Shown here piece after piece: positions 1-31,871 of a stretch of 32,000 nucleotides of DNA. The notes beneath the pieces were generated by a model. That model made no database searches, was not told where the DNA came from, and was given only the letters and a program-made list of their open reading frames with translations. The translations under genes and the position numbers were made by a program. Position 1 is the stretch's first letter; every line of letters begins with the position of its first letter. Source of the DNA: an uncultured Opitutales bacterium (lineage in GTDB: Bacteria > Verrucomicrobiota > Verrucomicrobiia > Opitutales > Intestinicryptomonadaceae); NCBI GenBank assembly GCA_934613415.1, contig CAKTSY010000005.1, positions 180,518 through 212,517 of the forward strand. Reading direction: 5' to 3'.

Positions 1-1423
1 AGACGAAATAGAGCCGATTAAAGAGCTTTTAAAATCGGTAGACGGCACTTTGTGCAAAGCTTTGGCGGAAAATATAGGAACATTTGCCGAATTAAAGGAA
101 CGCCTTAAAAACGCCCTTAACGACGAACTGCCCATAAAGATAGCCGAAGGCGGCGTTATACGAAGCGGCTTTAACCAAGAGCTAGACGACACGCGCAACC
201 TAAGCGTAAATTCAAAAAAATGGCTGTCCGACTTCGAGGCAAACGAACAGGCGCAAACTGGCATTAAAAATTTGCGCGTAAAGCACACGGCCCCATTCGG
301 GTTTTCCATAGAGGTAACAAAATCGTTTTTGCATTTGGTGCCCGCCCACTACATAAGAAGGCAAACCCTTGTAAACGCCGAAAGGTTTACAACCGACGAG
401 CTCCGCAAAAAGGAAACCGAAATTTTAAATTCCGAAGAAAAGGCATTGCAGCTCGAGCAAAAGATTTTCGACGAACTTGTAGACTATGTTCTTGAAAGTT
501 TCGACCCCCTTATAGACACCGCCGAAACCCTTGCAAAGGTAGACGTATTTTGCTCGTATGCCAAGCTTGCGCTAGATTGGGACTATTGCCTGCCCAAAGT
601 AGACAATTCCGACACGCTAGACATTGTTCAGGGCAGACACGTTGTGATAGAACAAATGCTTGCCAACGGCAAAACGGGGCTTTCCGACAAGTTTGTTCCG
701 AACGATACTTTCCTGTCTTCAAGCGGCGAGCAAATTGCGCTTATAACGGGGCCGAATATGGCGGGCAAATCAACCTACATAAGGCAGACGGCGCTTATTG
801 CAATTTTGGCGCAAATGGGTTGTTTTGTTCCAGCAAAAGAGTGCACAATGGGGCTAATCGACAAAGTGTTTAGCCGAGTTGGAGCTTCCGACGAGCTTTC
901 GCGCGGCAACTCGACATTTATGGTCGAGATGAACGAAACGGCAAATATTTTAAACAACGCAACAAATAAGTCGCTTATTATATTAGACGAAATAGGCAGG
1001 GGAACAAGCACCTACGACGGCCTTAGCATTGCCTGGGCAATAGTAGAATATCTGCACGGCGACGAAAAGTCGGGCCCAAAAACTTTGTTTGCAACCCACT
1101 ACCACGAGCTTACAAAGCTTGAAGGCCTTTTAAACAGGCTTGTAAACTACAAAGTTTGCGTAAGGGAATATAACGACGAAATCATATTTGTAAGAACCAT
1201 AGAGCGCGGCCAGGCCGACAAGTCTTACGGCATACAGGTGGCAAAGCTGGCGGGGCTACCCAACGAAGTTATAGAAAGGGCAAAAAGCGTGCTTAGCGAG
1301 ATAGAAAACGAGGGCAACATTGTCGTTTGCAGGCTAGACTCGGCAAAGGGTGCAACACCCAAGCCGCGCCGCGAGCGCAAAAAAGACGCCCAAGGGGGAG
1401 CTACCCAGCTGTTTTTCCTTTAA
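1..1423 (+). CDS. mutS: DNA mismatch repair protein MutS, C-terminal part; the gene starts left of the window
   Basis: The frame is open from base 2, so the TTG at 50 is only the ORF caller's start. Walker A TGPNMAGKSTYIRQ, Walker B LIILDEIGRGTSTYDG and the ATHYHELT motif are present. Confidence 0.93.
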   Translation, partial: DEIEPIKELLKSVDGTLCKALAENIGTFAELKERLKNALNDELPIKIAEGGVIRSGFNQELDDTRNLSVNSKKWLSDFEANEQAQTGIKNLRVKHTAPFGFSIEVTKSFLHLVPAHYIRRQTLVNAERFTTDELRKKETEILNSEEKALQLEQKIFDELVDYVLESFDPLIDTAETLAKVDVFCSYAKLALDWDYCLPKVDNSDTLDIVQGRHVVIEQMLANGKTGLSDKFVPNDTFLSSSGEQIALITGPNMAGKSTYIRQTALIAILAQMGCFVPAKECTMGLIDKVFSRVGASDELSRGNSTFMVEMNETANILNNATNKSLIILDEIGRGTSTYDGLSIAWAIVEYLHGDEKSGPKTLFATHYHELTKLEGLLNRLVNYKVCVREYNDEIIFVRTIERGQADKSYGIQVAKLAGLPNEVIERAKSVLSEIENEGNIVVCRLDSAKGATPKPRRERKKDAQGGATQLFFL

Positions 1424-8400: not shown

Positions 8401-8832
8401 CTACAAAGCCGCCAGCATTTTCAGCTCGTTTTCAAGCAAAGTTGCGCTTAGGTTGTCTATTTCGTTGCCCAACTTTTCTATTGAGCGGTTGTTGCGGTTA
8501 TATTCAAGCTCGCAAACAACATTGTTTTGCATTGCATTTACCAATTCGGCGTCGCTGGGCAGAGGCTCTAAAGCGTAGTTTGCATAGCCAAAATACAACG
8601 CCAAAGCGGCAGCCGCCGAAAGCACTGTGCCCCAAAACGCCCTTATTTTTGCGCTTTTGCCCTTTTCGCGCCCTATTTGCGCCAAAAGCTTGTCGGTAAA
8701 TTCGTCGCTTAAGGCTATTTTTTGCAATGCTAAACATTCGTCTATTTTGGCGTCTACAAGCGTTTTTTGCACAAAATCGTCGTTCAACGCCACTTTGTTT
8801 TTCAAAAAAAGTTCGTCTATCTTATTATTCAT
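8401..8832 (-). CDS. Putative single-pass anti-sigma factor
   Basis: Overlaps the stop of the ECF sigma gene by 8 nt. One TM (AFWGTVLSAAAALALYFGYA) lies between two soluble halves. No family motif recognised, so the call rests on context. Confidence 0.5.
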   Translation of the reverse strand: MNNKIDELFLKNKVALNDDFVQKTLVDAKIDECLALQKIALSDEFTDKLLAQIGREKGKSAKIRAFWGTVLSAAAALALYFGYANYALEPLPSDAELVNAMQNNVVCELEYNRNNRSIEKLGNEIDNLSATLLENELKMLAAL

Positions 8833-26121: not shown

Positions 26122-26209
<88 letters not shown>

Positions 26210-26221
26210 GTTTTTAAGCGT

Positions 26222-26260
26222 AAAAGGCAGATTTGCACTAAGTTGCGAATCTGCCTTTTC
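26222..26260 (+). terminator. Strong hairpin terminator now following tRNA-Ser
   Basis: AAAAGGCAGATTTGCA ctaagt TGCGAATCTGCCTTTT (12-bp stem including one G-U), followed by TTTTC. Confidence 0.7.
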
Positions 26261-26395
26261 TTATGGTACAACACCCCTGTTTGCAAATGCTTCATCATCA
26301 GGGTTCAACTGGTGCGTTTCACGCTCAGATGTGCGACCAAACAGCAACCTTGTCTCCGCAAAATCCGTTGAGGACGAAACTATTATCCATCTTCC

Positions 26396-26650
26396 TTAAT
26401 AGAGCTCAACATTTTTTTTGATGTGATTGTTATTTTCCAAATCGTCATCGAAAAATATATCTACTACACCATTACGCTTGGAAGATAGATAAATTATGTA
26501 CATGAAAGAAATTTCCTCGTTTGGAGATATTGTATATGAATCCGAGATTTCTTCTATTTGCTCTATGTTATACATTTTTATTCGAACATTTCTTGCGGAA
26601 GATTGCCCGACGTTCTTTATAGCGATGTAGCCTGGTTTATTTGATGCCAA
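26396..26650 (-). CDS. Downstream (-1 frame) part of the split small gene; no start signals of its own
   Basis: The frame is open from 26704. The track start is a TTG with no SD and there is no nearby ATG. Beta-strand-like sequence YIAIKNVGQSSARNVRIKMYN...VVDIFFDDD. Confidence 0.45.
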   Translation of the reverse strand: MASNKPGYIAIKNVGQSSARNVRIKMYNIEQIEEISDSYTISPNEEISFMYIIYLSSKRNGVVDIFFDDDLENNNHIKKNVELY

Positions 26651-26664
26651 TGGACGACGAACAT

Positions 26665-26868
26665 TTATTTCAAAATTAGCTTTTTTTTTAAAAGTAGTTC
26701 TTCTTTAAACTTAGAAAGCTTTAAATCATTAAGTTCAATCTCTTGTTTTTTAATTCGTTTATCATATATAAAAAATCCAATGGTGCAAAAAAGGAAACTG
26801 GATATAGAGATGATAAGAGAAATATCACTCTTCCCCAAAGAAGAAAAGATTTCGTATATTACTTGCAC
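26665..26868 (-). CDS. Small single-TM protein, translationally coupled to res (upstream part of the split gene)
   Basis: GTG 26868 is preceded by GAGGA (26880-26876, 7-nt spacer) inside the last res codons and overlaps res by 10 nt. TM ISLIISISSFLFCTIGFFIY followed by a charged helix. Confidence 0.5.
   Translation of the reverse strand: MQVIYEIFSSLGKSDISLIISISSFLFCTIGFFIYDKRIKKQEIELNDLKLSKFKEELLLKKKLILK
26680..26689 (-). other. A9 homopolymer containing the in-frame A_AAA_AAG slippery heptamer (candidate -1 recoding or slippage site)
   Basis: Minus-strand codons are TTA AAA AAA AAG CTA. Slipping -1 reads GCT AAT TTT GAA..., which is exactly the frame of the downstream ORF. Confidence 0.6.
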
Positions 26869-29504
26869 GATATTATCCTCGCTATTTCCGCCTTATATGA
26901 ATCTTTGCGAGCCATAAGGAATAAGCATTTACCATTAGAACGTTCAGCCCATAATTCTCCTATTATTCTCTTCGCTTTTGAGTCATCATTTGAATAAAGA
27001 TGTTCCCCCTTATATTCTATTGCAAAAATGCGTCCATCATTAAGAAGACAGATAAAATCAGGATAAAAACGTGTTTTCGCAGTAGGAAGCCAGAAAGAAG
27101 TATCTTCCTTTTTCTCTATATTCCTAATCCAATATTTCACTTCTGGTAAATTATCTATGAAGTGGGCACACTCTATTTCATCGGAATTCATAGATGCGAC
27201 CTGCGGGAAATAATGCTTTTTAAAATTATTTTCGATTGGATCGCTTACTGGATACTTATCAGGGTTAAATACGAAAGCATAATCATGTTCAGTTCCAGAC
27301 AATTTTATTGGAGTGTCTTTTGAGTCTAACAAAAATTCAAGTTGTTTGTCGAAATATGCCGCTTCAGCCGTCTGTTTATGAATTCTAAAAAGTTCACGAA
27401 TATGGCGAATAAACCCCCACCTTTCCCTTACAAAGTCAGATAACGATGCTTCATACCTAATCATAGATTGTTGTAAAACATAGGTAATGAAAGCAACAGC
27501 GTTTTGTCTGTCTGTATCTGGGTGGATTATATTTCTATCAATCCATGATACTAACTGCGTTTCTGTCCAACTTTCAGGCGGAGTAATAATTCGCAAATCT
27601 TGCTGAATATCGCTTGTAAAATCGAGCTTGATTTTCCCGTCTTCGCCGATCGTTCCAAGAACGATATTGTTGTCTTTTGCATTTGGATTAAAAATGAAGT
27701 TTGTTGAATCGTCCTTATAATCAAGGATATTCCAGTCGCCGTCTATGATTCGCGTATCAGTATCAAGAAGTTCAAATTCACCTTGTACAAGGATTCCAAG
27801 TGTCGGTACTTTAAATGGCTCATTTCTTTCCGATGGTGATGAAAATATTTTTTCAGTAATTTCACGTTGTTGCTTTATTGTTTGTTTAACGATTTCCTTG
27901 TCAGTTTCATCTGAAACTAGATCCAAGATTTCTTTTTCTTGTTCTTCAGACAATACATTTTTTACCGAAAGTTCTTTTGTTTGAGGATTAAATTCTATTT
28001 TCTCTTTTAGTTCCATTGAAAACTTTTCAGTATTTAGTGGAACACTCAACGTACAAATCTTTTTAGGTATTCTACGTGTTTCTAAGGGTAAAGTTGTTTG
28101 TTGTCCTTCCCGAATAAAATCTGAAGCTTCCATTTTCTCAAAACCGCTTTCGATTAACGAATCACGCAACGAGCTAGCTGCTAATTGGAAATTTTCAGAT
28201 ACCGCAAAAGCGTATGCACAATTTAATGCCAACGTTTCCTTTTTTGTAACACGTGGAAGACGTAAAATACGTCCTAAAATCTGTTCTACGGCTGTCTGTG
28301 AACGTTGCTCGGCAAGAGAACACAGGACATAAGCAAATGGACAATCCCACCCCTCTTTTAAGGAATCAACCGTAATTATATAACGAATTTTGCATTCATC
28401 GGACAGCAAATCTTTACCTTTTGCTTCGCTTCTCTCGTATGCTTCCATTGCGATTTCGGCTTTAGGGATTTGACATTCTCCGAGCAGATAATCTTCTATT
28501 TTGTCCGTAGTGATATTTTCGGGGTGTGCTTGCTCCTTATTTTGCGCCTTTATTAGCATTATAGGACGTATATACTCTCCAGTCTTAATCTTTTCTATTT
28601 TAGCTAATTCATTCAGCACGTTAAGTTCCGCGATCGCGTGATTTAAAATGTCTTTCCAATTACGCTTTACTTCAAGGCGTACTGGAAGTTTTATCATATC
28701 TTCGGTAAATAATTCATGAGCGGAAACGTGATGTAATACATTGCTTGGCGTGTTATTACCTTCACCTTTTGAAGGCGTCGCTGTAAACTCTATAATTGCT
28801 GACGGACTAAAAGCCCTAAGCATATCAAACGAAAGCGGACTTCTAGCATTGTGCGCTTCATCAACTATTACAATCGGGTGGCGCATACGCAGGACATTTG
28901 CCAAAGAATATTCAATTAGTCCATTTTCATCTTTTAAAAGTTTTTCTGAAACTTTTGGATCAAGCCCAGAAAAATGCGACATCAAACTTCCGTTTTCGTC
29001 ATAGGCTTTTCGGGATTCTTTGTTTCTTACTCGAAATGCTTGCATTGTGGAAACAATTATGGTTGTTGCGCCATCTAATATGGCTTTAGTCAGCCCATAG
29101 CATTCTTGAATTTCGCGGATTTCAATTTCGCCGAGAGTTGCGGTTAACGCTTGTCGATATGGGTGTTCTCGGTCTTTTAATGCGGTAAGTGTTTGAACTC
29201 TGATCGGATCACTTGGAACAAGCCATAACACACAAGCGTGTTCTTGCTTTAACAAATTGTCTTTTGCAATACGTATGGAATGACATGCCAAAAGCGTTTT
29301 TCCACCGCCAGTAGGAAGCCTGAGGCAAACATATGGCATATTGGCGTCGAATCCGCTTATAGATTTGTAATCTCTATTTTCGCCAAACTTTTCATATATC
29401 GTATCGATAAAGGCTTTTCTGGCGTCGTGTATTTGGGAAACCTTATCGAAATATAAAGATAATGTATCAAGAGTCTCTTGTTGATAATTCTTTAGCAATA
29501 CCAT
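26859..29504 (-). CDS. res: Type III restriction enzyme Res subunit (SF2 helicase plus C-terminal PD-(D/E)xK nuclease)
   Basis: Motif I LRLPTGGGKT, motif II VIVDEAHN, motif III FTATP, then LKEGWDCPF and QILGRILR. C-terminal FYPDFICL...FAIEYKG. Confidence 0.9.
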   Translation of the reverse strand: MVLLKNYQQETLDTLSLYFDKVSQIHDARKAFIDTIYEKFGENRDYKSISGFDANMPYVCLRLPTGGGKTLLACHSIRIAKDNLLKQEHACVLWLVPSDPIRVQTLTALKDREHPYRQALTATLGEIEIREIQECYGLTKAILDGATTIIVSTMQAFRVRNKESRKAYDENGSLMSHFSGLDPKVSEKLLKDENGLIEYSLANVLRMRHPIVIVDEAHNARSPLSFDMLRAFSPSAIIEFTATPSKGEGNNTPSNVLHHVSAHELFTEDMIKLPVRLEVKRNWKDILNHAIAELNVLNELAKIEKIKTGEYIRPIMLIKAQNKEQAHPENITTDKIEDYLLGECQIPKAEIAMEAYERSEAKGKDLLSDECKIRYIITVDSLKEGWDCPFAYVLCSLAEQRSQTAVEQILGRILRLPRVTKKETLALNCAYAFAVSENFQLAASSLRDSLIESGFEKMEASDFIREGQQTTLPLETRRIPKKICTLSVPLNTEKFSMELKEKIEFNPQTKELSVKNVLSEEQEKEILDLVSDETDKEIVKQTIKQQREITEKIFSSPSERNEPFKVPTLGILVQGEFELLDTDTRIIDGDWNILDYKDDSTNFIFNPNAKDNNIVLGTIGEDGKIKLDFTSDIQQDLRIITPPESWTETQLVSWIDRNIIHPDTDRQNAVAFITYVLQQSMIRYEASLSDFVRERWGFIRHIRELFRIHKQTAEAAYFDKQLEFLLDSKDTPIKLSGTEHDYAFVFNPDKYPVSDPIENNFKKHYFPQVASMNSDEIECAHFIDNLPEVKYWIRNIEKKEDTSFWLPTAKTRFYPDFICLLNDGRIFAIEYKGEHLYSNDDSKAKRIIGELWAERSNGKCLFLMARKDSYKAEIARIISCK

Positions 29505-29513
29505 TTTGAAGCC

Positions 29514-31205
29514 TTATTTATCAAATATTGAATAGGGTATCTGACGAAACACTATATTGTTTTTGCGCAACATCATTTCGCTTAACCCGCAAGCCGTTCC
29601 GTATATAATTTTTACACCGTCGTGTTTTGGTAAATTTTTTAGGACTTTTTGAGTAAGACGATTTCCACCGTTTACGGAATTATCGCCGAGAATACCGTTG
29701 TAAAGCAGGTATATAGCAACTCCGTTAGAAACTCCGATAAGAGGAGTTTTAAATTCCGTATTGTTATAAGCAAGCGGAGTTCCAGTGGCCATAAAGAAAA
29801 CGTGTCTGGCTAAGTCGGCATATTTGATGTTCGGATTTATATCGCCGTCAGCCGTGTACATCGGCTCACCGAGTTTTGCGAATTTAAATCCCGTTTGTTC
29901 CTGCAACCCATCGCGTTCTATTACACGTTTTGCGCGCTCCCGAGTAATTGATTCGGCGACTTGCGGCAACATTTCGCAAAGAATGAATTTGCGGTTTCCT
30001 TTGTCTTCTTTATTAAGTTCCAATACCGCTTGCGCCGTTGTTCCGCTACCAGCAAAAGAATCAAGGACAAGGGAGTCTTTAAAACTTGCTATTGACAATA
30101 AGTGAGCTATCAATGCTGATGGTTTTGCATAATTAAATTCCAATCCTAAATCTTCCAATTCTTGAGTTCCAATACTATTGGGAAACTCTTCTATAAAATC
30201 TTGCAATATTTCTTTTTTTTGAATTGAACCATTTTTATCTACAACTTCATCTTTAAAAATTTTTTTCCTGATTGTCCATTTTGATTTGTTGCCATTTTCA
30301 TCAATAAACGGTGATTTTTTTGATATGGAAAAATAAAAACGTCCAATCGCCTTTTCTTTCTTATATCGTTCTATACCCCAAGTCCAACATTTATCCTGCT
30401 GTGATTCTGGAAATACTTGGGCTCCATCAATTTTTTCTTTTGGCATAACATTCCCAGGAGGTATTATTAAAGAACCATCTGGACATTCTATAAAATAACG
30501 TTGATTCTTTCTTACATCGAGTTTTGCCCTAAAAGGGATTTCTCCTTTTAGAAAATAACGAGTTTTGCTATTAAAGATTTCTGTTTCCCATTTATAGACT
30601 GATTCATTTATAATTTTACCAAAAGTATGTTTTTTAACAGAAGATATTTCTCTTGCGTAACATAATACATAATCTTTTTTAGGCTTTAAAAAGTCTCCTT
30701 TGTTCCCACCTTTTTTTGTTATTCGAGCAATGTTGCCAACAAAATTCTGGGAATCAAAAATTTCATCAGAAATCAACTTCAAATTTGCATATTCTATATC
30801 GCCAATGCTTATAAAAATAAATCCATCTACAGTAAGAAACTCTTTCAATAATGAAAGCCTTGGGTACATCATACAAAGCCATTTGTCGTGGCGTGATAAG
30901 TCTTCCATTTCTTTACCTACAACTTGTCCGAGCCATTTTTTTATTTCCGGCGAATTTACATTGTCATTATAAACCCATCCTTCATTGCCGGTATTATACG
31001 GCGGATCTATGTATATACACTTGACTTTCCCTTTGTAGTAGGGGAGCAAGGCTTTTAGCGTAACGAGATTGTCGCCCTCCACTATAAGATTTCCGCTGTC
31101 TTTTTTACCAAAGCTTAAAGACTCATCCTCTTTCAAAATATGAAATGGAATCTCTCTATGGTGATTAACAACGGCTTTTTTTCCTATCCAGTCTAACGTT
31201 GGCAT
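29514..31205 (-). CDS. mod: Type III R-M Mod subunit (beta-class N6-adenine/N4-cytosine DNA methyltransferase)
   Basis: Motif IV IYIDPPYNTG lies N-terminal to motif I VLDSFAGSGTTAQAV (beta permutation). N-terminus MPTLDWIGKK. Ends 9 nt upstream of res. Confidence 0.92.
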   Translation of the reverse strand: MPTLDWIGKKAVVNHHREIPFHILKEDESLSFGKKDSGNLIVEGDNLVTLKALLPYYKGKVKCIYIDPPYNTGNEGWVYNDNVNSPEIKKWLGQVVGKEMEDLSRHDKWLCMMYPRLSLLKEFLTVDGFIFISIGDIEYANLKLISDEIFDSQNFVGNIARITKKGGNKGDFLKPKKDYVLCYAREISSVKKHTFGKIINESVYKWETEIFNSKTRYFLKGEIPFRAKLDVRKNQRYFIECPDGSLIIPPGNVMPKEKIDGAQVFPESQQDKCWTWGIERYKKEKAIGRFYFSISKKSPFIDENGNKSKWTIRKKIFKDEVVDKNGSIQKKEILQDFIEEFPNSIGTQELEDLGLEFNYAKPSALIAHLLSIASFKDSLVLDSFAGSGTTAQAVLELNKEDKGNRKFILCEMLPQVAESITRERAKRVIERDGLQEQTGFKFAKLGEPMYTADGDINPNIKYADLARHVFFMATGTPLAYNNTEFKTPLIGVSNGVAIYLLYNGILGDNSVNGGNRLTQKVLKNLPKHDGVKIIYGTACGLSEMMLRKNNIVFRQIPYSIFDK

Positions 31206-31432: not shown

Positions 31433-31447
31433 TCCCTCTCTCTCCGC
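31433..31447. repeat. Right copy of the direct repeat (putative attR; displaced, degenerate tRNA-Ser 3' fragment)
   Basis: TCCCTCTCTCTCCGC is identical to 26193-26207. Upstream TTCGA...TCCC resembles the T-loop with a small insertion. Confidence 0.7.
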
Positions 31448-31577: not shown

Positions 31578-31871
31578 ACAAAGGGTTTGCGGGTGATTTT
31601 TACGCGTGGCACAGGTTTTGGCAAAATATGCCCGAAAAACTGGGAACGCCGTTGGCAGAACATAAGGCAAAACAGCGGTTTTAGCCGCAAAGCGTTGCCG
31701 TGGCAGGCCGACGTTTTGCGGCACACTTACGCCAGCTTTTTTGCCAAGCGTTTTAAAGACCTGCCAAGGCTACAGCTAAATATGGGCCACAGCAACCAAA
31801 TGCTATTAAAAAGCCGCTACATAAACATGCGCAACATTTCCCACCTAGAAGCCCAAAAGTTCTTCAACTAA
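31578..31871 (+). pseudogene. Tyrosine recombinase (phage-type integrase) C-terminal remnant
   Basis: Only about 97 codons are open, bounded upstream by TAA at 31575-31577. Box II-like ADVLRHTYASFF and MGHSNQMLLKSRYI (catalytic Tyr region). The N-terminal roughly 200-300 aa expected for the family are absent. Confidence 0.7.

Follow-up and report, generated by a model that had tools for sequence, protein, structure and literature searches.

The window, the whole stretch of 32,000 nucleotides that was analyzed, carries mod and res genes that are adjacent and co-oriented with a gap of 9 nt and constitute a Type III restriction-modification locus. A third gene, designated orfX, follows res and is split in two at a run of nine adenines (Table 1). 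The GTG codon of the upstream fragment (ORF1) overlaps the res stop codon (26861-26859) by 10 nt and aligns with the ATG of a prophage-borne paralogue, and the sequence AGGAT is kept at the equivalent place upstream of both res-linked and prophage copies of orfX. ORF1 specifies a short N-terminal tail, one membrane helix, a basic DKRIKKQ motif and a stalk helix. It terminates out of frame with the residues KKKLILK, encoded by the codons TTA AAA AAA AAG CTA ATT TTG AAA TAA. The heptamer A_AAA_AAG (26686-26680) is positioned in the zero frame of ORF1. The -1 frame is open from 26704 to a TAA at 26396-26398, and one added A produces a fused protein of 157 aa (...LLLKKKANFEINV...). A first-pass annotation made from the sequence alone had proposed the 67-aa ORF, the placement of its GTG and of GAGGA within the end of res, the open -1 frame and the 157-aa fusion, all of which were confirmed.

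Table 1. Features of the mod-res-orfX locus and its surroundings (positions in the window)
Feature	Position	Strand	Remarks
mod, Type III methyltransferase, 563 aa, intact	29514..31205	-	Pfam N6_N4_Mtase; PADLOC MTase_III, E = 2e-154
res, Type III restriction subunit, 881 aa, intact	26859..29504	-	Pfam ResIII; PADLOC REase_III, E = 6e-136
GAGGA, Shine-Dalgarno-like	26876..26880	-	7 nt 5′ of GTG 26868, within res 3′ end
ORF1 (orfX N-terminal fragment), 67 aa	26665..26868	-	GTG 26868 to TAA 26665
A9 tract (T9 on + strand)	26681..26689	-	Frameshift site and recombination junction
orfX C-terminal 94 codons and stop	26396..26680	-	-1 frame; end of stalk helix and entire 7-strand beta-sandwich; prophage-type sequence
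ORF2, 84 aa, TTG start	26396-26650	-	Would begin at residue 74
Intrinsic terminator, hairpin and T-tract	26222..26259	-	Ends the mod-res-orfX transcription unit
tRNA-Ser (UGA anticodon)	26122..26209	+	3′ end serves both the island and the related prophage as attachment site
att core, proximal copy	26193..26207	+	Exact 15-nt direct repeat TCCCTCTCTCTCCGC, at tRNA-Ser 3′ end
att core, distal copy	31433..31447	+	Second copy of the 15-nt repeat
Truncated tyrosine integrase, C-terminal 94 aa	31587..31871	+	Just beyond the distal att core

The two att cores bound a 5.24-kb island with a GC content of 35.9%, compared to 45.4% in the upstream DNA (1-26100). The integrase remnant aligned with positions 105-167 of the 172 in the Pfam Phage_integrase model (E = 3.6e-4, below the curated cut-off). 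The att core also is located upstream of mod in three related loci (L001, L034, and L036), and in L036 a prophage tail and att core are directly upstream of mod, which reveals that elements stack in tandem at the attachment site. Variable elements were found beyond the att core, and in intact relatives four further genes and an integrase follow orfX. All pairs of the terminator hairpin are retained in eight sequences, and L036 and the prophage loci also have the hairpin conserved. It is the only supported structure in the 187-nt variable spacer 3′ of orfX, in which no Rfam match and no covarying pair were detected.

A search with the conceptually repaired protein retrieved an intact homologue of 157 aa (P0001; 76% identity over the full length), a 145-aa paralogue (P0002), and the truncated protein P0003. 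Intact homologues were 76-85% identical to the repaired 157-aa sequence, and ORF1 shared 98% of its residues with the N-terminal half of the intact homologues of 157 aa. As these homologues are co-linear across the junction, the split is a true frame break in one gene and not the juxtaposition of two chance ORFs. A profile search of 1.84 billion representatives yielded 187 family representatives at E <= 1e-3, nearly all of which are single ORFs of 140-160 aa matched from approximately position 15 to 155. Intact orfX is normally one gene of ~150 codons, and the copy in the window is a disrupted member of the family, divided in two without a single ORF of 140-160 aa. Independent expression of the downstream 84-aa ORF was considered and rejected: the ORF had been noted to be devoid of an ATG or Shine-Dalgarno sequence of its own, its TTG start is not preceded by any SD-like sequence, and the product would be without strand beta-1 (residues 66-71 of the model described below). 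Thus, the 84-aa ORF alone is unlikely to be functional.

PHROG 6723 (159 positions; function unknown) matched the family end to end, over positions 26-158, with E = 4.6e-4 for the repaired 157-aa sequence and E = 3.6e-7 for P0001. No usable family match to the orfX protein was found in Pfam, NCBIfam, or PADLOC. Sub-threshold matches to CARDB (Pfam PF07705) were evident for 12 of 64 family members (best E = 1.9e-4), with none for the window protein. Four family members produced no credible match in PADLOC-DB 2.0, the sole one being to Cmr1 over the membrane helix (E = 0.006), and P0002 gave no tblastn match in a phage genome collection. No description of a restriction-modification-linked membrane or Ig-like accessory protein of the orfX type was found in the literature. 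The family is undescribed, and its only record is the PHROG of unknown function.

An AlphaFold2 model built on a 64-sequence alignment (pLDDT 93.5) bore out the membrane anchor, linker helix, and beta-rich domain anticipated in the first-pass annotation. Residues 2-61 are modeled as a helix that comprises the membrane segment and stalk, and residues 66-156 as a seven-stranded beta-sandwich. Structure searches with the model returned matches limited to generic Ig-like sandwiches and uncharacterized phage proteins. The residues K62, K63, and A64 are invariant in an alignment of 11 sequences; across 64 aligned sequences the consensus is KKA, and A64 hardly varies. The model places the KKA residues at the hinge between helix and sandwich. 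Because the frameshift falls on this hinge, ORF1 corresponds to the anchor and stalk, and ORF2 to the sandwich. A conserved basic motif, (H/Y)D(K/R)KIKKQ, lies directly after the hydrophobic segment which, by the positive-inside rule, suggests that the beta-sandwich is cytoplasmic.

The A9 tract exceeds every other homopolymer in the window and is the sole A/T run of at least nine there, compared to about 12 such runs expected under a first-order Markov model of the window. Long runs therefore are avoided in this DNA and A9 is an outlier. Homopolymers are error-prone on some platforms and one base restores a perfect ORF, so the tract could in principle be a sequencing or assembly error that conceals a true A10 and an intact gene. 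However, the six res-linked contigs that were read at the DNA level, which were assembled independently (ENA and Logan; six sample accessions), without exception possess A9 and are 99.9-100% identical to the window across up to 11.6 kb. The exact 84-aa ORF2 is on record from 18 contigs and at least six samples. Moreover, the in-frame chimera was present in no assembly, and the A8 runs that had been highlighted at 1923-1930 and 30213-30220 are situated within intact genes, namely uvrC, the product of which is recognized as UvrC by Pfam, and mod. The uniform A9 tract and the near identity to the window identify the six contigs as one clone, and as this clone has been assembled independently several times an error is very unlikely. 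L016, another contig that encodes the 84-aa product, is artefactual, as its prophage-type copy is truncated by a Nextera adapter.

The survey of homologous mod-res loci recommended in the first-pass annotation revealed that the third gene is intact in nine loci (L001, L029, and L034-L040). The tract in these loci is A6-G-A3, reading TTTTAAAAAAGAAAGC at the site. Ten prophage-borne copies (L002-L011) have A6, reading GAATAAAAAAGCT. Thus, where the window has A9 the intact res-linked alleles have AAAAAAGAAA and the prophage alleles have AATAAAAAA. The corresponding sequence in L020, a Type III-linked member that is more distant, is GAAGAAAAAAGCT. Relative to the nine res-linked and ten prophage loci, A9 was found only in the allele of the window. 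L029 has another homopolymer frameshift, from A6 to A5. A DNA pattern scan for an A-run of variable length between the left flank of the res type and the shared right flank provided no matches among JGI metagenome contigs or viral contigs.

A three-way alignment of the window with the two groups of relatives established that its allele is a chimera, with the N-terminal half from the island and the C-terminal half from the prophage. The window is of the island type, with no gaps, from the distal att core through mod and res up to codon 63 of orfX. Identity between the att core and the A-run was 99.52% with L037 and 99.53% with L040 (23 and 22 mismatches, respectively, in about 4.7 kb). In contrast, from the A-run to the orfX stop there were no differences in 285 coding nucleotides relative to the ten prophage copies, and prophage-type homology continued past the stop through the terminator to the tRNA-Ser gene. 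Synonymous divergence (dS) from the res-linked type correspondingly rose from 0.055 to the left of the junction to 1.28 to the right. The dN/dS ratio between the C-terminal half of orfX and the res-linked type was 0.21, so this half has been under purifying selection in the intact lineages. The two parents have 23 nt in common around the junction (AAAGCTAATTTTGAAATAAATGT). They also are found together. Besides being the closely coupled final gene of restriction operons, orfX occurs in a prophage that shares the tRNA-Ser attachment site, in which it is the last gene ahead of the same att core and tRNA-Ser. Both paralogues were present at similar coverage in the same samples, ERZ24911475 (7.66x and 7.34x) and SRR20550174.

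The chimera was probably generated by recombination between island orfX and prophage orfX at their sole shared stretch, that is, the A-rich KKKA codons and GCTAATTTTGAAATAAATGT. The recombinant would have kept the N-terminal half of the island gene and acquired the C-terminal half, terminator, and att-proximal DNA of the prophage. The G of AAAAAAGAAA would thereby have been replaced to give an uninterrupted run: when the parents are aligned on GCT, an in-register crossover just to the left of the G in A6GA3 produces A10 in frame (L K K K A), and the window is one A short of this product. A9 might then have arisen by replication slippage from A10, by a crossover one base out of register, or by loss of the G. 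Each of the three routes would suffice, and the data give no preference among them. The layout of the window would result if island and prophage had been arrayed in tandem and recombination between the two orfX copies had removed the DNA in between. This deletion model is consistent with the locus, with the order of events proposed from that layout.

Because a crossover origin accounts for A9, the split is probably a recent and unprogrammed frameshift at a recombination junction that leaves orfX as a null allele or strong hypomorph, possibly a leaky one. The lesion most likely is very recent. Among the possibilities raised earlier for this gene, a decaying pseudogene is closest to the evidence, refined to a very recent lesion at a recombination junction. 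Three observations can be set against a simple frameshift. A9 is kept in every contig of the clone, as it would be in an allele that depended on slippage. The downstream frame bears no further lesion, which says little in a clone without divergence. The heptamer A_AAA_AAG is exactly in the right frame, and both slippage routes would restore the wild-type protein. Selection on ORF2 since the lesion is not readable because the clone has no internal divergence. The spacer was assessed as a neutral clock for such selection and was discarded; the prophage copies showed no differences in the 285 nt of the gene compared to 4.7% in the spacer.

Type III mod genes are well known for phase-variable repeats, and orfX might likewise be a contingency gene that is switched between A9 (OFF) and A10 (ON) by slipped-strand mispairing during replication, with the sampled clone in the OFF state. 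The tract is of a length that slips readily, the A10 product of an in-register crossover would be ON and one step from A9, the A6 to A5 change in L029 is a second homopolymer frameshift, and long runs otherwise are avoided in the genome. Nevertheless, no polymorphism in tract length was found among the chimeric contigs read at the DNA level (six of six res-linked contigs with A9), and each of the 18 contigs on record has the split 84-aa ORF. In-frame chimeric products from A10, A7, and A13 were absent from 15 billion proteins and there is therefore no sign of ON/OFF switching at the consensus level. In addition, the tract of the relatives either is broken by a G or is short, contrary to what selection for a contingency tract would maintain. 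Phase variation thus is an unlikely account of the A9 allele.

Programmed recoding, in which the 157-aa protein would be made in a set ratio with the 67-aa fragment by -1 frameshifting on A_AAA_AAG, by slippage on A9, or both, appears more improbable again. The heptamer in the zero frame and the open -1 frame are both in place, the slip product matches the intact homologue at the junction, A9 is uniform in the clone, and the run attains the minimum of nine A or T associated with transcriptional slippage. Nine adenines is a length at which RNA polymerase slips efficiently, and the mechanism is employed by dnaX of Thermus thermophilus (PMC5009743). However, the arrangement was present in 0 of 19 related loci, the family of 187 representatives is single-ORF, and accordingly neither the heptamer nor the run is conserved among homologues. 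As had been suspected, no stimulatory structure was evident downstream: folds of 61-121 nt were no more stable than shuffled sequences (z = +0.5 to +1.1). The 20 nt upstream (AAGAAGAACTACTTTT) contain no GGAGG-like motif and thus no SD-like stimulator. Heptamers without stimulators operate at 2-10 times a background of 0.055% in E. coli, well below 1% (PMC4066793). The 67-aa product had no counterpart elsewhere in a search of the protein collection, and recombination at this very position accounts for the origin of the site without any need for selection. The proposal that recoding or phase control is an evolved feature of the locus consequently was not upheld: the slippery run is confined to one recombinant clone, without a stimulator or length variation.

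An unprogrammed frameshift at A9 may nonetheless be leaky. Some full-length protein could still arise from transcripts with an extra A produced by RNA polymerase slippage on the tract, and rare -1 ribosomal slips on A_AAA_AAG would encode the same intact protein. Partial rescue of the A9 allele is physically plausible, as nine consecutive A or T residues induce highly efficient slippage of bacterial RNA polymerase in vivo, for the most part with the addition of bases (PMC5009743).

Intact members of the family recur beside DNA-modification systems. In nine of 14 distinct contexts orfX overlaps a restriction or BREX gene on the same strand or is separated from it by no more than about 12 nt, and these contexts represent five architectures: Type I, IIG, ISP-like, III, and BREX. 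The Type III arrangement mod-res-X occurs in the group comprising the window and L001, and again in L020, in which X starts on the res stop codon and is only 37% identical, so that the linkage to Type III systems first noted in the window holds more widely. In Type I loci the order is hsdM-X-(Fic)-hsdS (L019, L031, and L041). Elsewhere X follows an 856-aa methylase and a 397-aa protein (L030), a ResIII+Eco57I fusion enzyme with a HEPN gene beyond X (L026), or an MmeI-like Type IIG enzyme (L043). In the BREX locus (L042), a 423-aa protein encoded 3′ of PglZ and BrxL consists of a TIR_2 domain followed by the orfX linker and sandwich (hhalign probability 99.5%, E = 2e-22 against the family), and the TIR domain thus replaces the membrane anchor. 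The remaining contexts are mobile-element edges or unclear. Weak relatives are located on enterobacterial plasmids near CBASS-like and TIR genes.

The exchange of an anchor for a TIR domain on a common domain is the modular logic of abortive-infection effectors. From the restriction linkage and this exchange, the role favored for orfX is therefore that of a putative accessory sensor/effector, or membrane tether, beside restriction enzymes. Ig-like sandwiches in the BREX protein PglZ have been hypothesized to act as sensors of invaders (PMC12839542). A fuller proposal is tentative and stands well short of even confidence: intact orfX may be an undescribed accessory module of DNA-modification immunity, composed of an Ig-like cytoplasmic sensor or adaptor on a stalk that is fused to a membrane anchor or TIR domain and is co-transcribed with Type I, IIG, ISP-like, and III enzymes and with BREX. 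The module might act as a second-layer abortive-infection effector or tether the restriction complex at the site of phage DNA entry, and in the strain studied here might be held at a low, slippage-dependent level by A9. If orfX does function in defense, restriction systems would have an accessory layer that current defense-finding tools leave unannotated. The family, the protein of which is small and widespread, is a reasonable candidate for follow-up in the defense field. The A9 allele also is a useful negative example for recoding scans, as it presents a textbook heptamer that is an accident of recombination, and it illustrates that paralogues can, through exchange, give rise to a hypermutable homopolymer.

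The site resembles the -1 frameshift sites of E. coli dnaX and IS3-family elements in that A_AAA_AAG is in the zero frame and the downstream frame is -1. Whereas those sites are conserved and are flanked by an upstream SD-like sequence and a downstream hairpin or pseudoknot that act as stimulators, the orfX site has neither stimulator nor conservation. The nine adenines, to which an added A restores the frame, also recall transcriptional slippage on A9/T9 in T. thermophilus dnaX and in the rescue of genes in Buchnera and Blochmannia. In the latter, poly(A) frameshifts are unprogrammed lesions that are partly rescued by transcriptional slippage (PMC5009743). Unlike these systems, the run in orfX is a novelty of one clone that marks a recombination junction rather than serving as a conserved device for expression. 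Phasevarions are phase-variable Type III restriction-modification loci, which the orfX locus resembles in that a Type III locus contains a frame disrupted by a simple repeat. However, the orfX tract is in an accessory gene and not in mod, and no ON/OFF length polymorphism was found.

In its genomic setting orfX is akin to PrrC and PdpSau as a small accessory gene that is embedded in or coupled to restriction genes, or placed at the end of a prophage. PrrC is the product of an abortive-infection gene embedded in a restriction operon, the prr Type I locus. PdpSau is encoded by a prophage and has a membrane helix at the N terminus and a C-terminal part in the cytoplasm (PMC10127798), an organization that the predicted orfX protein would share. 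No relationship of sequence or fold between orfX and either protein was found; PADLOC detected none, and the fold is a generic Ig-like sandwich. Pycsar and CBASS effectors fuse one sensor domain to transmembrane helices or to TIR. Although the vicinity of orfX contains no nucleotide cyclase or other signal generator, and its CARDB-like Ig fold is not nucleotide-binding, the family parallels these effectors in the placement of one linker and beta-sandwich on a membrane helix in most members or on a TIR_2 domain.

The spacer between the stop codon of orfX, the small membrane-protein gene that follows mod and res, and the att core was compared between the window and the ten prophage loci L002-L011, which carry an intact orfX paralogue. 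The window spacer differs from the prophage copies at 7-13 positions, and the prophage copies differ from one another at a mean of 8.9. The adjoining 285 coding nucleotides are without a single difference in 11 of 11 sequences, synonymous sites included. RNA covariation was sought in the spacer and none was found, nor did the spacer match any Rfam entry.

Just one A/T run of nine or more nucleotides is present in the whole window compared to about 12 expected under a first-order Markov model. Thus, long homopolymers are strongly avoided in this DNA. Separately, the C-terminal part of MutS is encoded at window positions 50-1423. An independent second homopolymer frameshift, from A6 to A5, is found near position 1394 of L029, in the otherwise intact res-linked orfX allele that encodes the truncated homologue P0003. 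The source of this allele is one 1.4-kb Logan contig, and the change could be either a mutation or an assembly error.

The publicly deposited contig of locus L016 begins with a Nextera adapter (positions 1-54) joined to the middle of an orfX of prophage type, which is an assembly artefact; the 84-aa ORF, the C-terminal part of the split orfX in the window, is called in L016 because of this fusion. The hsdM region of the Type I locus L019 includes a masked stretch that is recorded as consecutive N at the DNA level and translates as X.

Further loci with orfX or with matches to its domains are listed in the table. The membrane helix is absent from the TIR_2 protein of L042. Each of the two 159-aa proteins has a small ORF in front of it; the Enterobacter protein has an S-4TM effector, a nucleotidyltransferase and a TIR protein as neighbours, and an Abi-family gene is near the Pantoea protein. 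In the large protein P0115 (1480 aa), seven matches to the beta-sandwich part of the orfX profile were detected, and therefore the domain exists as tandem repeats too.

Coordinates of the att repeats, spacer, integrase fragment and loci with orfX or orfX-family matches
Feature	Location	Strand	Details
Direct repeat TCCCTCTCTCTCCGC	window 26193-26207 and 31433-31447		exact, 15 nt; island boundaries
Spacer, orfX stop to att core	window 26210-26395; L002-L011 about 8439-8626		187 nt
Tyrosine integrase, C-terminal fragment	window 31587-31871	+	94 aa; Pfam positions 105-167 of 172; E = 3.6e-4
TIR_2 + orfX-family linker + beta-sandwich protein	L042 5110-6381		423 aa; downstream of BREX PglZ and BrxL
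Type I locus, Prevotella sp. CAG:1185	L019 7983-9814		orfX, then 459-aa Fic/DOC protein, then hsdS
Hypothetical protein, Enterobacter kobei p11778_1	L046 3367-3846		159 aa; weak beta-sandwich match, E = 7e-4
Hypothetical protein, Pantoea soli plasmid	L045 4773-5252		159 aa; weak beta-sandwich match, E = 3e-6

The direct repeats, one copy of which is the tRNA-Ser 3' end, delimit a 5.24-kb island that carries mod, res and orfX and has a GC content of 35.9% compared to 45.4% for window positions 1-26100. The tyrosine integrase fragment lies a short way beyond the distal repeat, on its outer side, and may be a relic of a different element that formed part of a tandem array. The island itself has the appearance of an integrative element that has lost its integrase module.
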